Made by a program: the position numbers and the translations under genes
Assembly: GCA_016217925.1 (NCBI GenBank)
Contig: JACRFK010000004.1
Location: 46,435-110,434 of the forward strand
Direction: 5' to 3'
DNA: 64,000 bases
DNA from: Candidatus Kaiserbacteria bacterium
GTDB lineage: Bacteria > Patescibacteriota > Minisyncoccia > Phycocordibacterales > UBA2100
In this document: positions 59,827-64,000 of the stretch, piece by piece
How the letters are laid out: each line of letters begins with the position of its first letter
How positions within the stretch are numbered: the stretch's first letter is position 1
Notes under the pieces: generated by a model
Seen by the model: only the letters and a program-made list of their open reading frames with translations
Database searches by the model: none
What the model was told of the DNA's origin: nothing

Positions 59827-60270
59827 CTACCGAGACTGCTGTACGGGTGTGATATTGCGGAGCGCTTTGAGGGTGAGAATATCGGGGTTTATCTGGTAGA
59901 GAATAAGGTAAATACTTAAGAGCAAGAGCAGGCCGAGCGTCACATCAGCGATTATGGTTTTTGCCTCGCCTTTGTGGCTCCACATATCGGATTGACCCAT
60001 GTAGAGGTAGCCTGCGTATACGAGGCGCAAAACCGCGGCAATCGCTCCGATAGCGATAGCAAATTTAAAAAGACCGTTTATGAAACCGGAGAAATCTTGC
60101 GAACTGTAAAGCTGACCAAGCTTCGAACCCCCAGGAGTTTGGGCAAGCGGCACGAAATCACTAGCGGCGTGCACGATCGTTGGCATCAGTACGAAATAAA
60201 TGCATATACACGCGAGTATCGCGAGTAGTGTGAGGAAGCTGTCGTATGCAATTGACGACATTTTGTTCAT
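59827..60270 (-). CDS. VirB2/TrbC-like T4SS pilin-type membrane protein, tentative
   Basis: Long signal peptide (..FLTLLAILACICIYFVLMPTIVHA), then two hydrophobic helices (GLFKFAIAIGAIAAVLRLVYAGYLY / IIADVTLGLLLLLSIYLILYQ) separated by a short polar loop: the VirB2/TrbC layout. Upstream of a VirB4 gene. Confidence 0.5.
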   Translation of the reverse strand: MNKMSSIAYDSFLTLLAILACICIYFVLMPTIVHAASDFVPLAQTPGGSKLGQLYSSQDFSGFINGLFKFAIAIGAIAAVLRLVYAGYLYMGQSDMWSHKGEAKTIIADVTLGLLLLLSIYLILYQINPDILTLKALRNITPVQQSR

Positions 60271-60271
60271 A

Positions 60272-61531
60272 CTATTTTTCCAATCGCAGAAGCCACAAAG
60301 ATTTATCGACGGCGTTCGTAAATGTAATATAGTTTCCCTCACTGTCTACCAAGACGTTCTCAATATCGATCGAAGTATTGGAGGGTGGCGTAAAGACCAT
60401 CTCGGAGGTACCCGCACTCGCGTCAATTCGCCAAAGCGCATCGGACGAGTGCGTCGCCCCTCGATACCATTCGTCAAGAAAATTTTGTCCCGGTTGGCCC
60501 TGCGGTACGCCGCAATAGGCGACGAGGTCTTTCCCGGAAGACCAGACGCACTTATCCGCGAGGGTCCTCACAGGAACTCGTACGGGCGCTGCGTTTTGGG
60601 ATACCTGCGCGAACAGGCTCATAGTACCTCGGTCGGATTGTCCCCAAAGCAGGGCGCTTCCACCAGGGACGGAGCGGGCGCGGAGCGTGAGTCCGGGAAT
60701 AGGACCAAGGAGCGGGCTCATCGTCCCGTCTTTTTTCAGTTCGTAGGCATAGCCGAGCACCCCATCGGCCGCAGCTTGGGTAAGAACGATACGGCCGTCT
60801 TCAAATGTAGTTGGCCGCCAGCTCGTGATTACTGAGCCGAAAGTATTCTTTTGTTTTTGGCCGTCCCATTCGGCGTTCACGCCTATAGCGCCGTCGGGAC
60901 CTCGCAGGATGTAGAAAAGTGCCCCGGAGACTGGATGTACGGACATGCTCGCGATGTTCTTCGTAAGATTGGATCCGGTAAGTGTCTGAGACGACGAATC
61001 CGAAGTCCTCGTGGTGGTCGAAATAGTGCCGACGAATGTTGTTATATTGCCCGCGGCATCAAGGGAGCGCTCAAATACGTGGCCATTTTCCGTGAGAAAT
61101 GCTTCATATGTCTTCGGCATCAGAGTGTTCGTAAGCCGCGCCACTTGGCCTGTTTCAGGGTTGGCTTCGAACACATAACCACTCGCGCGCTCGACATACC
61201 GCAGACGGAGCTCGTCACTACTCCCGAGGAATATCGCTCCTGCGACCGGATTAGTCGCCACCTGCCATAGCTGTGGCGGGCGCTGACCCCGCCCGGTGTT
61301 CGCGGATGCGCTTTTCTGTGCCCAGTCAATTCCCGGAGACGGTGACGGGGCATTCAACGCGTTCCCATCCGCATTCCCAAATGGTACTAACGCACCGAAT
61401 CCCCTCGCCAGACTCTGCATATTGAGAGTATTCGTTTGTGTACGCAAGAAGAAATACCATCCGGCGAGCCCTCCAAGTATGAGGACGACGACGACCGCAA
61501 GGAGATATTCGATAATGGTACGTGTTTTCAT
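60272..61531 (-). CDS. membrane-anchored extracytoplasmic beta-rich protein (T4SS-module component, function unknown)
   Basis: 419 aa; N-terminal TM anchor (..IIEYLLAVVVVLILGGLAGWYFFL), then a repetitive beta-strand-rich domain. Confidence 0.55.
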   Translation of the reverse strand: MKTRTIIEYLLAVVVVLILGGLAGWYFFLRTQTNTLNMQSLARGFGALVPFGNADGNALNAPSPSPGIDWAQKSASANTGRGQRPPQLWQVATNPVAGAIFLGSSDELRLRYVERASGYVFEANPETGQVARLTNTLMPKTYEAFLTENGHVFERSLDAAGNITTFVGTISTTTRTSDSSSQTLTGSNLTKNIASMSVHPVSGALFYILRGPDGAIGVNAEWDGQKQKNTFGSVITSWRPTTFEDGRIVLTQAAADGVLGYAYELKKDGTMSPLLGPIPGLTLRARSVPGGSALLWGQSDRGTMSLFAQVSQNAAPVRVPVRTLADKCVWSSGKDLVAYCGVPQGQPGQNFLDEWYRGATHSSDALWRIDASAGTSEMVFTPPSNTSIDIENVLVDSEGNYITFTNAVDKSLWLLRLEK

Positions 61532-61536
61532 AATAC

Positions 61537-62667
61537 TTATTGATCTTTAGACTGGAACGGATCAGTCGCGCCCGGGGATGAGGAAAAAGTAATGTTCCAC
61601 CCACCCTTCGCATTGAGGAAGTAGTTCGTCGCATGCGTCGTCTCGAGCTCGACGAGCGCAATGCCGCTCGAGTTCTCAGCGTTGATCGTAATCTTGCTAG
61701 GGTTCTCACGATTTGTGGGGACCTCTGTGTCGTTGACGTGCCACACAAAGTGTAGTGCCGGGTCGTACACGCTTGTTGCCTGTGCGAAAAGAGGCATGGC
61801 AGTGAATGTCATTTCTGTTTCGGGAATGAATGTGGATGGGCCGAGCGCGCGGTGGTACATGATCCCGTAGAGTGGATGGTCCTGATAGAGTGTAAGTATG
61901 GGATCTCGCGATGAGAATGAGACCGACGATGTGTGCGAAAGGACTCCGTCGACGCTGCGTACCTCGACCGATATCGTATCTATTCCGAAGAGGTGCTCGA
62001 CCGGGAGATTCGCAGTCGACCTTCCAAGGCCGGAGATATTTCCGAGCACCATGCCGTTCCGGCGCCATGTGTACGTAAGAGCGGACGCGGGTATCGATAT
62101 GCCCGCACGCCTGAAGCGCGGGAGTGCCTGCAGATAAAGGTTCGTCCCGGCAGATGCGAGCGGTCTTCCACGATAAAAAGGCGGAGTGTAAGAATCGGAG
62201 TCGACAAGCAAATCGAGCTCGGTGGGAATGATCGTTGCTTGTGCGGATGCAACGATCCCGTTCTCGGTGGTCACCGAGACGTCGATGAGTATCTCGGTGC
62301 CGAGGGCGCCTACTTTTATTGACGTCGAGTCGGCTCCTTTCCCCTGCGCGATCTTCTTCCCGTCTGCCTCCCAGAGAATGTCGCTCCCCGGAATGTCAAG
62401 GAGAGGACTTTGTAGGGTGAGAGTCACTGTGTCGCCCGGCTTCGGTGAGGTGGGCGAAAATGCGATCGAGATCGCGCTATTCGTTCCCGGCGGGTCCAGC
62501 TGTGCGTGCGCCGTGATGGCAAAGACAGAGAGGGCGCACGCAATGAGCATCACCGACAACCATTGGTAACGAGCTGTCATATCGCCATCATTATATCCTG
62601 ACGATCGCCGCTTGGGCGCGCGATGCTCATTATTGTTGTGGCGCGGTAGCCGGTACCTCAGGAGCAT
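61537..62667 (-). CDS. secreted Ig-like-repeat protein (T4SS-module component, function unknown)
   Basis: 376 aa; probable start MTARYQWLSVMLIACALSVFAITAHA (signal peptide); repeated beta-sandwich-like segments. Confidence 0.5.
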   Translation of the reverse strand: MLLRYRLPRHNNNEHRAPKRRSSGYNDGDMTARYQWLSVMLIACALSVFAITAHAQLDPPGTNSAISIAFSPTSPKPGDTVTLTLQSPLLDIPGSDILWEADGKKIAQGKGADSTSIKVGALGTEILIDVSVTTENGIVASAQATIIPTELDLLVDSDSYTPPFYRGRPLASAGTNLYLQALPRFRRAGISIPASALTYTWRRNGMVLGNISGLGRSTANLPVEHLFGIDTISVEVRSVDGVLSHTSSVSFSSRDPILTLYQDHPLYGIMYHRALGPSTFIPETEMTFTAMPLFAQATSVYDPALHFVWHVNDTEVPTNRENPSKITINAENSSGIALVELETTHATNYFLNAKGGWNITFSSSPGATDPFQSKDQ

Positions 62668-64000
62668 TGAAATTTACCGTCGCGGATTGCACACGAGCGG
62701 CCTGCTCCGCAGCACCCGCAACGACCTCGGCAGTACCCGGACCGCCCTCGCTCGCTGCGGCGAGGTCTTGCTTTGCTTTTTTAATGGCGAGGATCTGAGA
62801 AGGATCCGAGGTAATGATCTGGTCCTCAGTGTACGAAGCGATGACCTTGATCGCGACATGTTTGAGCCCCGCGAAGAAGATACCCTCCCCCACGTCACTC
62901 TCGAGAAGAAGGTATTTTTCTTCGTCGGAGAGTTTGAACGTCTGCTGCACGAGATCGACCGATGTCGGAGATTGGCGCAACAGCATTTGTATCGAAGAGT
63001 TGGTGATCATCGGAATGCCGTAGGGCGAGTTCAGGAAGTCGGAGACGTCTTGGGTAATCGTCGAGATGCCAAGGAAGTATTTGCGCCCGCGCTTCGCGAT
63101 GGAGAAAAGAAATGACGCGGTGTCTTCTGAGCGCATCATCCACCACGCTTCATCGATGACAAGCAGTCGCTTACGCAGCTCCTTGCGAACCGCGTTCCAA
63201 ATGTGGTGCGTGATGATGTACATCGCGACGGGCTTGAGATCGTCTTCCATGTCGCGCACGGAAAAGACGATAAGTTTCTTATTCATGTCGACGTTAGTCG
63301 GTCGGTTCATAAATCCGGCCCACGTGCCCTTCGTGTATTTTGATAGTCGTGCGACCAGCGATTCGCTACCCTCCATGCCGGAGAGCACGAGCTCGAAGTC
63401 GGAGAGGAGCGGCGGCTCTACAAGCGCGAAATTTGCATCGGCAGTGATGTCTTTAAGCGCATAGGTTTCTGTAATAGCACGGTCGATGACGGCATCTTCC
63501 TCCGGTGTAAGGCCGCCCAACATGATGCGGAAAAGGCCGACCAGTGTGATGATGTTGTTGCGCAGCACATCGGACGGATTCTCATCTTCACGCGGGATGG
63601 CGAGGTCGAATGGGTTGATGTGATGTTCCGATGAAAGTGAAATATTGAAATAGCGTCCGCCCACTGTCTCGGCGAGGTATTCGTACTCGCGTTCAGGGTC
63701 TATGACAATAACTTCCGTGTCGAACATAAGACTGCGGAGAATCTCGAGCTTGGTCGTGTACGATTTGCCAGCGCCGGACTTTGCGAAGGTCACGGAGTTA
63801 TAGTTCTCGAGCGAGAATCGATCGAAAAGAATGAGCGACGAGTTGTGGCGGTTGATGCCGTAGAGAATCCCCCTATCCGAAGTGAGGTCGAAGGAAATGA
63901 ATGGGAATATCGAAGAAAGCGGAGCCGAGTTGAGTTTCGTGTGCACGTTTATCTCATCGGTCGCGAGCGGAAGCACGCTTCGGAACCCTTGCTCTTGCTG
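62630..64000 (-). CDS. VirB4/TrbE/CagE-family type IV secretion ATPase, C-terminal part (gene continues beyond 3' edge)
   Basis: Walker A FAKSGAGKSYTTK, Walker B LLVIDEAWWMM, ..GRKYFLGISTITQDVSDF..; the frame stays open from 63976 to 64000. Confidence 0.8.
   Translation of the reverse strand, partial: QQEQGFRSVLPLATDEINVHTKLNSAPLSSIFPFISFDLTSDRGILYGINRHNSSLILFDRFSLENYNSVTFAKSGAGKSYTTKLEILRSLMFDTEVIVIDPEREYEYLAETVGGRYFNISLSSEHHINPFDLAIPREDENPSDVLRNNIITLVGLFRIMLGGLTPEEDAVIDRAITETYALKDITADANFALVEPPLLSDFELVLSGMEGSESLVARLSKYTKGTWAGFMNRPTNVDMNKKLIVFSVRDMEDDLKPVAMYIITHHIWNAVRKELRKRLLVIDEAWWMMRSEDTASFLFSIAKRGRKYFLGISTITQDVSDFLNSPYGIPMITNSSIQMLLRQSPTSVDLVQQTFKLSDEEKYLLLESDVGEGIFFAGLKHVAIKVIASYTEDQIITSDPSQILAIKKAKQDLAAASEGGPGTAEVVAGAAEQAARVQSATVNFNAPEVPATAPQQ

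Follow-up and report, generated by a model that had tools for sequence, protein, structure and literature searches.

Candidatus Kaiserbacteria contig JACRFK010000004.1 carries, at the end of the 64,000-nucleotide stretch analysed here (forward-strand positions 46,435 to 110,434; hereafter the window), four co-directional genes beside a dnaA-rpmH-rnpA-yidC-jag block, one of them the 3′ part of a gene for a VirB4 ATPase. Is this cluster a conjugative element, or does it belong to a chromosomal machine of the cell that carries it? The sequence evidence points to the 3′ part of a chromosomal type IV secretion system (T4SS) of the Patescibacteria clade, which would serve epibiotic host interaction and not conjugation; we put the probability of this reading at roughly 0.88. 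The assignment to the clade was made from family models, closest matches and gene context. In a first-pass annotation of the window, a conjugative element was considered less fitting than a chromosomal apparatus for secretion or uptake, and published work has come to the same conclusion (PMC12102498; PMC10633639). As the system was described between 2023 and 2025, the window locus is a rediscovery.

The four-gene cluster and its products

The cluster and the spacer that bounds it read as follows:

62630..64000, minus strand: virB4, 3′ part; last 456 codons and the stop codon, the translation showing Walker A and B motifs and hidden Markov model (HMM) matches
61537..62580, minus strand: p347; predicted secreted protein with a Sec signal peptide cleaved between AHA and Q and three tandem immunoglobulin (Ig)/fn3-like β-sandwich domains
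60272..61531, minus strand: p419; 419 aa, predicted bitopic, with a transmembrane (TM) helix, a linker and an extracytoplasmic 7-bladed β-propeller
59827..60261, minus strand: VirB2-like T4SS pilin; 144 aa, with a long signal peptide and two hydrophobic helices
59761..59826, no strand: convergent intergenic spacer from the jag stop to the pilin stop, read from the sequence

In the list of open reading frames (ORFs), all four genes are present on the minus strand where the first-pass annotation had placed them, adjoining the dnaA-to-jag block. The gaps between them are only 5-49 nt, and we therefore read virB4-p347-p419-pilin as one operon. Two of the starts were revised. The p347 frame spans 61537-62667, where starting from the upstream ATG (62667) would lengthen the product to 376 aa; the start is most likely M30 (62580), which yields 347 aa, agrees with the orthologue start and provides a putative signal peptide, MTARYQWLSVMLIACALSVFAITAHA followed by Q, with cleavage between AHA and Q. 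An exact-sequence look-up of the 376-aa form gave no record. The pilin frame spans 59827-60342, and its start is most likely 60261 or 60270 (144-147 aa) rather than the GTG at 60342, because the latter would overlap p419 by 71 nt; the gene call in the relative L001 is 144 aa. The virB4 frame is open up to the window edge at 64000, with the N-terminal ~188 aa of a protein of ~644 aa lying beyond it. An exact copy of p419 was found only on a 5.5-kb Logan contig that stops inside virB4, and because exact look-up could not lengthen the contig, the extension of the locus was taken from relatives.

The ATPase had been recognised as the C-terminal ~450 aa of a VirB4 protein, and this assignment is borne out. 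The 456-residue translation contains Walker A GAGKSYTTK and Walker B DEAWWMM and matches the NCBIfam model conju_CD1110 ("VirB4-like conjugal transfer ATPase, CD1110 family") at E=1.3e-84 and 285 bits. The score lies below the 325-bit cutoff because the protein is cut at the window edge; a full-length orthologue (P0001, 644 aa, 98% identical) reaches 366 bits. Other models matched by the fragment are F-type TraC (1.6e-48), VirB4_CagE (6.6e-27) and Pfam P-loop_TraG (E=2e-24). Among solved structures, P0001 is best matched by PDB 4ag5, a VirB4 C-terminal domain (1e-40), with TrwK at 1e-7. More than 120 homologues were found at 87-98% identity, measuring 565-692 aa if complete, and the closest matches all come from metagenome-assembled genomes (MAGs) of Candidatus Kaiserbacteria, Paceibacterota or other Patescibacteria. 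By its sequence, membership of the protein in the monoderm CD1110 family is confirmed.

The last gene of the cluster has the layout first noted for it, two hydrophobic helices behind a signal peptide, and its family is supported by orthologues. The window pilin matches the Pfam family T4SS_pilin PF18895 at 21.6 bits (E=2.4e-4; gathering score 26.6). Among 51 syntenic orthologues, 48 match PF18895 (best 2.4e-10) and eight match TrbC/VirB2 PF04956 (best 8e-7). The conserved columns of the orthologue alignment include the motifs YM...INP. In many orthologues the C terminus is extended by a long, unrelated stretch that can reach ~580 aa (L006, L016, L018, L027, L035, L045, L047, L056, L076 and others); the window pilin is the short form. 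One extension has a CHAP-domain match, the pilin domain of L035 is duplicated, and several tails are Cys-rich or coiled-coil.

The two middle proteins had been described as a signal-peptide Ig-repeat protein and a TM-anchored all-β protein of no named family, a description upheld by structure models and by database nulls. Neither p347 nor p419 has a match in Pfam or NCBIfam, and their homologues are all unannotated. AlphaFold2 models were built on alignments of 90 and 93 sequences, respectively, with predicted local distance difference test (pLDDT) scores of 90.8 and 90.2. In p347, a signal peptide is followed by three predicted Ig/fn3-like β-sandwiches. The p419 model comprises an N-terminal TM helix, a disordered linker of ~30 residues (~51-78) and a 7-bladed β-propeller, and the cysteine pair C328 and C340 is invariant. 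A profile search of 1.84 billion representatives matched p347 to 3,687 clusters, of which 2,161 reach E<=1e-30, and p347 thus represents a large unnamed family; lengths are mostly 330-360 aa among the matches listed, save some truncated entries. Both predicted folds are generic extracellular modules, and both proteins carry export signals. A VirB8- or VirB1-like identity for either was rejected, the folds being neither lysozyme, CHAP nor NTF2.

Chromosomal setting and conservation in relatives

The cluster faces an origin-type block, whose genes were identified from ORF translations and from the Pfam labels that identical or orthologous genes carry in L001 and L002:

54881-55990, minus strand: dnaN
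56208-57572, minus strand: dnaA
57825-57965, plus strand: rpmH
57970-58317, plus strand: rnpA
58365-59132, plus strand: yidC
59242-59760, plus strand: jag/R3H

The first-pass annotation had set the cluster "downstream" of this block. The adjacency stands; the orientation is corrected, as the cluster is convergent with jag, so that it is read in the direction of the origin block, with the pilin gene at its end. The 66-nt spacer between the jag and pilin stops contains a GC-rich hairpin, CCTCTCC-CGGCCG-GAGAGG, at ~59761-59779. A consensus terminator scan of 59600-64000 detected no minus-strand terminator after the pilin, and promoter and terminator counts over the same interval were at shuffle level. 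The location next to oriC, also proposed earlier, agrees with the gene order, and the cumulative GC skew has its minimum at 54-56 kb of the window. DnaA boxes (TTATCCACA, <=1 mismatch) numbered 12 against 8.6 expected, and the dnaA-rpmH spacer holds a single near-consensus box; since the boxes are not enriched, the position of oriC is drawn from gene order and GC skew.

To follow the operon past the window edge we turned to L002, a relative with 98% VirB4 identity that shows the full locus. Its gene order is:

ksgA; a 110-aa small secreted protein; two TM proteins, 294 and 284 aa; a 712-aa fn3 protein
a polytopic protein of 810 aa with a coiled-coil tail; a protein of 187 aa; an IS200-like Y1 transposase
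PrgI/VirB3-like; TrsD-like, 221 aa; VirB4; p351 and p416, orthologous to p347 and p419; pilin
convergent jag, yidC and rnpA; then dnaA and dnaN

Relatives thus supply the neighbours upstream of virB4, namely a candidate VirB6-like gene and PrgI/VirB3- and TrsD-like genes; no VirB8-like or coupling protein was seen there. In L002, the PrgI/VirB3-like protein scores 35.4 bits against a gathering cutoff of 27, and the 221-aa protein matches TrsD at 2.4e-5, under the cutoff, and has a precomputed match to PF26593 TraC-like. The 810-aa protein has many hydrophobic segments and a long coiled-coil tail, with no match in Pfam or NCBIfam. The PrgI-like and TrsD-like genes lie just upstream of virB4 in relatives and are presumably present in the window genome. 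Positions up to ~180 of canonical VirB4 models align with the TrsD-like protein (L002:9334-9999), those from ~179 on with the 644-aa VirB4. Because the two proteins split the model at this point, the VirB4 N-domain is a separate gene in this lineage. The 284-aa TM protein (L002:1987-2841) shows a weak local match (E=5.9e-6) to positions 179-294 of a Bacteroidetes TraG/VirB4 model and could be another detached VirB4-like fragment, or the match could be due to chance.

Conservation was followed across 80 loci of Paceibacteria, scanned with one genome per GTDB species, picked by VirB4 similarity and mapped by tblastn with the window and L002 proteins. The shared order is VirB6-like, PrgI/VirB3, TrsD, VirB4, p347, p419 and pilin, then jag, yidC, dnaA and dnaN. 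This order and the jag/yidC/dnaA neighbourhood are kept in almost every relative with enough flank, which answers the earlier question of whether the module is conserved beside jag. Species with a tblastn match and median identity to the window protein over the 80 species were:

VirB4: 80/80 species; 82% for the C-terminal part
TrsD-like: 78/80 species
p347: 78/80 species; 29%
PrgI-like: 75/80 species
p419: 68/80 species; 29%
yidC: 65/80 species; 44%
VirB6-like: 62/80 species
pilin: 59/80 species; 39%
dnaA: 59/80 species; 55%
dnaN: 57/80 species; 40%
PBP1: 55% identity
Jag: 42% identity

No protein of the window neighbourhood 54881-64000 (compared with L005-L084) is as conserved as the VirB4 ATPase domain, whose identity exceeds that of DnaA in 57 of 58 genomes of this VirB4-picked sample. 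A near-frozen cytoplasmic motor combined with fast-changing outer parts fits an essential machine that faces a variable partner.

Two side observations concern these loci. In more distant genomes (L026, L030, L033-L041 and others), the order is p347, pilin, p419, with the pilin no longer last of the three; only the best pilin match per locus was used, so that extra pilin copies may exist. Several MAGs (L006, L011, L013, L015 and others) are titled "uncultured Candidatus Saccharibacteria", with VirB4 91-94% identical to that of Kaiserbacteria and the whole Paceibacteria synteny; the titles are probably automatic mislabels.

These comparisons bear directly on whether the cluster could be an integrated conjugative element, or the remnant of one, that lies near the origin by chance. 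The VirB4, PrgI and TrsD families do derive from monoderm conjugation systems, and an IS200-like Y1 transposase sits within the cluster in 4 of 81 loci, that is, in three of the 80 species genomes and in L002 (L002, L017, L019, L021). Against such an element stand the conserved gene order and flanks across 80 species and a VirB4 that evolves more slowly than DnaA. When every ORF of >=150 aa in the 81 loci was clustered and Pfam was run on unlabelled recurrent clusters, the recurrent neighbours within +/-10 kb included no relaxase, coupling protein or integrase, only PBP1, KsgA, a UvrD-type helicase, trigger factor and similar genes. None of the three was found among the L002 genes, and no relaxase, type IV coupling protein (T4CP) or integrase occurs among the 20 large window ORFs scanned (up to 976 aa); the first-pass annotation had likewise noted no relaxase, integrase or VirD4. 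In L002, neither att-like repeats beyond chance length at the flanks nor a tRNA were detected, and the tRNA closest to the cluster in the window lies 21 kb off. Base composition is native, with a GC content of 0.542 inside the cluster and 0.542 outside, and GC content at third codon positions (GC3) in the cluster overlaps that of housekeeping genes. The relaxase, integrase and direct repeats that had been named as signs of an integrated element were thus sought in the 98%-identical relative and the 80 species, with a negative outcome. Given that relaxase, T4CP and integrase are missing from the scanned neighbourhood, the lack of att sites or tRNA, the fixed synteny and the native GC, we reject an integrated conjugative element, which we regard as extremely improbable. 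Chance ORFs as the origin of the cluster were likewise rejected.

In L002 (8006-8802) the Y1 transposase gene sits between the 187-aa gene and prgI, and is flanked by and overlaps three copies of a palindromic repeat of ~29 nt (ACAAGGTTCAACCTTGTAA core), an arrangement that resembles a pair of repetitive extragenic palindrome and associated tyrosine transposase (REP/RAYT).

Relation to known systems and probable function

A T4SS of this kind is widespread in the Patescibacteria. VirB4 occurs in 2,417 of 3,035 Patescibacteria genomes and forms a monophyletic clade nested in the mating-pair formation class MPF-FATA; TrsD, PrgI/VirB3, VirB6 and VirB2-like pilins are found near virB4, relaxases are almost absent from these systems, and in Paceibacteria virB4 lies near dnaA, dnaN, rnpA, ksgA and rpmH (Quinonero-Coronel et al. 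2025, Microb Genom, PMC12102498). In the same paper the machine is proposed to have been repurposed away from conjugation, with import of macromolecules as a possible role (PMC12102498). A 2025 review describes the Patescibacteria systems as the sole monoderm T4SS type with VirB2-like pilins (PMC12857230), and the tubular structures reported from a parasite-host interface may be T4SS pili (bioRxiv 10.64898/2026.06.21.733656). The window lineage resembles these systems in its Candidate Phyla Radiation (CPR)-clade VirB4, in the TrsD-like and PrgI/VirB3-like genes just upstream, in a candidate VirB6-like polytopic protein, in the PF18895 VirB2-like pilin, in having no relaxase or T4CP nearby, in its place beside dnaA, dnaN, rnpA and ksgA, and in the exported β-sandwich proteins after virB4.

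Experimental evidence comes from the Saccharibacterium Southlakia epibionticum, in which transposon sequencing (Tn-seq) shows the T4SS genes and a pilin array to be essential for epibiotic growth (Wang et al. 2023, Cell, PMC10633639). Its cluster, SEML1_0004-0019, directly follows dnaA-dnaN-recF, and its virB4 operon ends in the essential exported β-sandwich proteins SEML1_0004 and SEML1_0005 (PMC10633639), an arrangement analogous to that of p347 and p419. The two systems differ in several respects. The window lineage has one pilin at the operon end and not a 6-gene pilin array; after virB4 it has a triple-Ig protein and a TM-anchored propeller, whereas Southlakia has lysozyme and peptidase genes and then small β-sandwich proteins; and no NTF2/VirB8-like gene was seen in the window lineage.

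Among monoderm conjugative systems of the MPF-FATA class, we compared the Tn916/CTn2 CD1110 family, pCF10 Prg/Pcf and pGO1 Trs. Shared features are a VirB4 that passes the CD1110 model (the full-length orthologue), a PrgI-family VirB3 analogue, a TrsD-like protein and the lack of outer-membrane core components. Unlike these systems, the window cluster is without a relaxase, coupling protein, oriT context or integrase, occupies a fixed chromosomal core locus, encodes the VirB4 N-domain as a separate gene and has a VirB2-like pilin, which Gram-positive systems lack. Its operon tail also contains no VirB1 hydrolase or VirB8-like gene.

We propose that the most likely mechanism is that of a VirB4-powered, pilus-forming envelope channel in epibiotic host interaction. 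A VirB4 hexamer would sit at the cytoplasmic face of a membrane platform of VirB3- and VirB6-like proteins, complemented by the separately encoded TrsD, which would supply the counterpart of the VirB4 N-terminal domain. Driven by ATP, the hexamer would pull Sec-inserted pilin out of the membrane, to be polymerised into a pilus or conduit across the monoderm envelope. The propeller p419, tethered to the membrane, and the secreted triple-Ig protein p347 may form an extracellular base, a wall-spanning part or a host-binding part; a host-facing role fits the fast divergence of both. The machine would then move macromolecules across the host envelope in an obligate epibiotic interaction. As to what is moved, protein export or host penetration comes first, at somewhat less than even odds; import of host nucleic acids or other macromolecules is unlikely, and to the same degree so is some other substrate or a role in adhesion only.

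An importer would do without relaxase and T4CP, and host DNA, RNA or other macromolecules would enter by way of the pilus. The absence of a relaxase and coupling protein near the cluster agrees with this, nucleotide synthesis is lacking in Patescibacteria, the hypothesis in print favours import (PMC12102498), and a 2026 preprint ties RNA feeding to possible T4SS pili and a monophyletic VirB4 (bioRxiv 10.64898/2026.06.21.733656). The T4SS-derived uptake systems, ComB of H. pylori and Ced of the Sulfolobales (CedA/A1/A2/CedB), are likewise chromosomal, lack relaxase and coupling protein, and pair an ATPase of the VirB4/HerA type with small VirB2-like membrane proteins. The window protein also shows weak local similarity to CedB; however, the CedB model NF041017 gives 29.3 bits for the fragment and 36.8 bits for the full-length protein against a cutoff of 700, with ~75 residues covered. 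ComB needs the diderm VirB7-10 core, absent from the window cluster, and DNA uptake in the only Patescibacterium tested goes via ComEC and type IV pili. With model scores this far under the cutoff, a Ced or ComB orthologue was rejected. In Southlakia, competence needs ComEC and is dispensable, whereas the T4SS is essential (PMC12857230), and DNA uptake for transformation is therefore not the T4SS role. We consider a dedicated importer doubtful.

The components could instead build an adhesive pilus for host attachment, with no translocation of substrate. The VirB2-like pilin is co-transcribed with VirB4, the pilus-biogenesis ATPase of known systems, no coupling protein lies nearby, and the accessory proteins have adhesin-like folds. 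However, type IV pili, for which pilM and pilB are present in the window, already give adhesion in Saccharibacteria (PMC12857230), and the extreme conservation of VirB4 together with the kept VirB6- and VirB3-like channel parts suggests a translocon. We judge a purely adhesive pilus distinctly improbable. A more specific proposal joins several of these elements: p347 and p419 would be unnamed, Paceibacteria-specific T4SS subunits that recognise the host envelope, their divergence would reflect host-range adaptation, and the machine would import host macromolecules via a VirB2-type pilus in a monoderm. Taken whole, this is quite unlikely.

Several points weigh against a chromosomal T4SS for epibiotic host interaction. 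The Paceibacteria system is known from its genes alone. The 5′ end of virB4 and the upstream components lie outside the window, so that completeness is read from relatives, and the 810-aa protein owes the name VirB6-like to its hydrophobic topology and position, with no HMM match. The window pilin by itself falls under the Pfam gathering threshold, and p347 and p419 are counted as parts of the machine by synteny and predicted localisation. Choosing genomes by VirB4 raises the VirB4 identity figures somewhat. A relaxase or T4CP could also lie elsewhere in the genome, beyond the 64-kb window.

The Patescibacteria T4SS is among the few conserved machines that may explain how many uncultivated bacteria live off hosts. 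To this the window adds a clear-cut example from Kaiserbacteria, of the class Paceibacteria, together with figures that describe the locus quantitatively, and nothing categorically new. Its residual interest lies in the extreme conservation of VirB4 and in two unnamed accessory families with many members, p347 and p419, which accompany the locus and are concrete candidates for host-contact subunits.

Other features of the window

Every other large window ORF that was scanned either belongs to the housekeeping genes or lacks a Pfam match. Among the former are IleRS, ArgRS, PolA, RuvB, glutamate dehydrogenase and PBP1. Type IV pilus genes are also present, with pilM at 18584-19726 (minus strand) and a PilB/GspE-type ATPase at 46668-48365 (plus strand); as they share the window with the T4SS, the genome has the two envelope machines that Saccharibacteria are known to require. 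Four large ORFs have no Pfam match at E<=1e-3:

29022-31214, minus strand: 730 aa
32067-34997, minus strand: 976 aa
39672-41066, minus strand: 464 aa
44784-46037, minus strand: 417 aa

An Rfam scan of the window returned tRNAs only. Directly upstream of one of them, tRNA-Leu(GAG) at 15497-15579 (minus strand), lies a free-standing LAGLIDADG-type ORF at 15582-16259 (minus strand; Pfam 1.6e-7).

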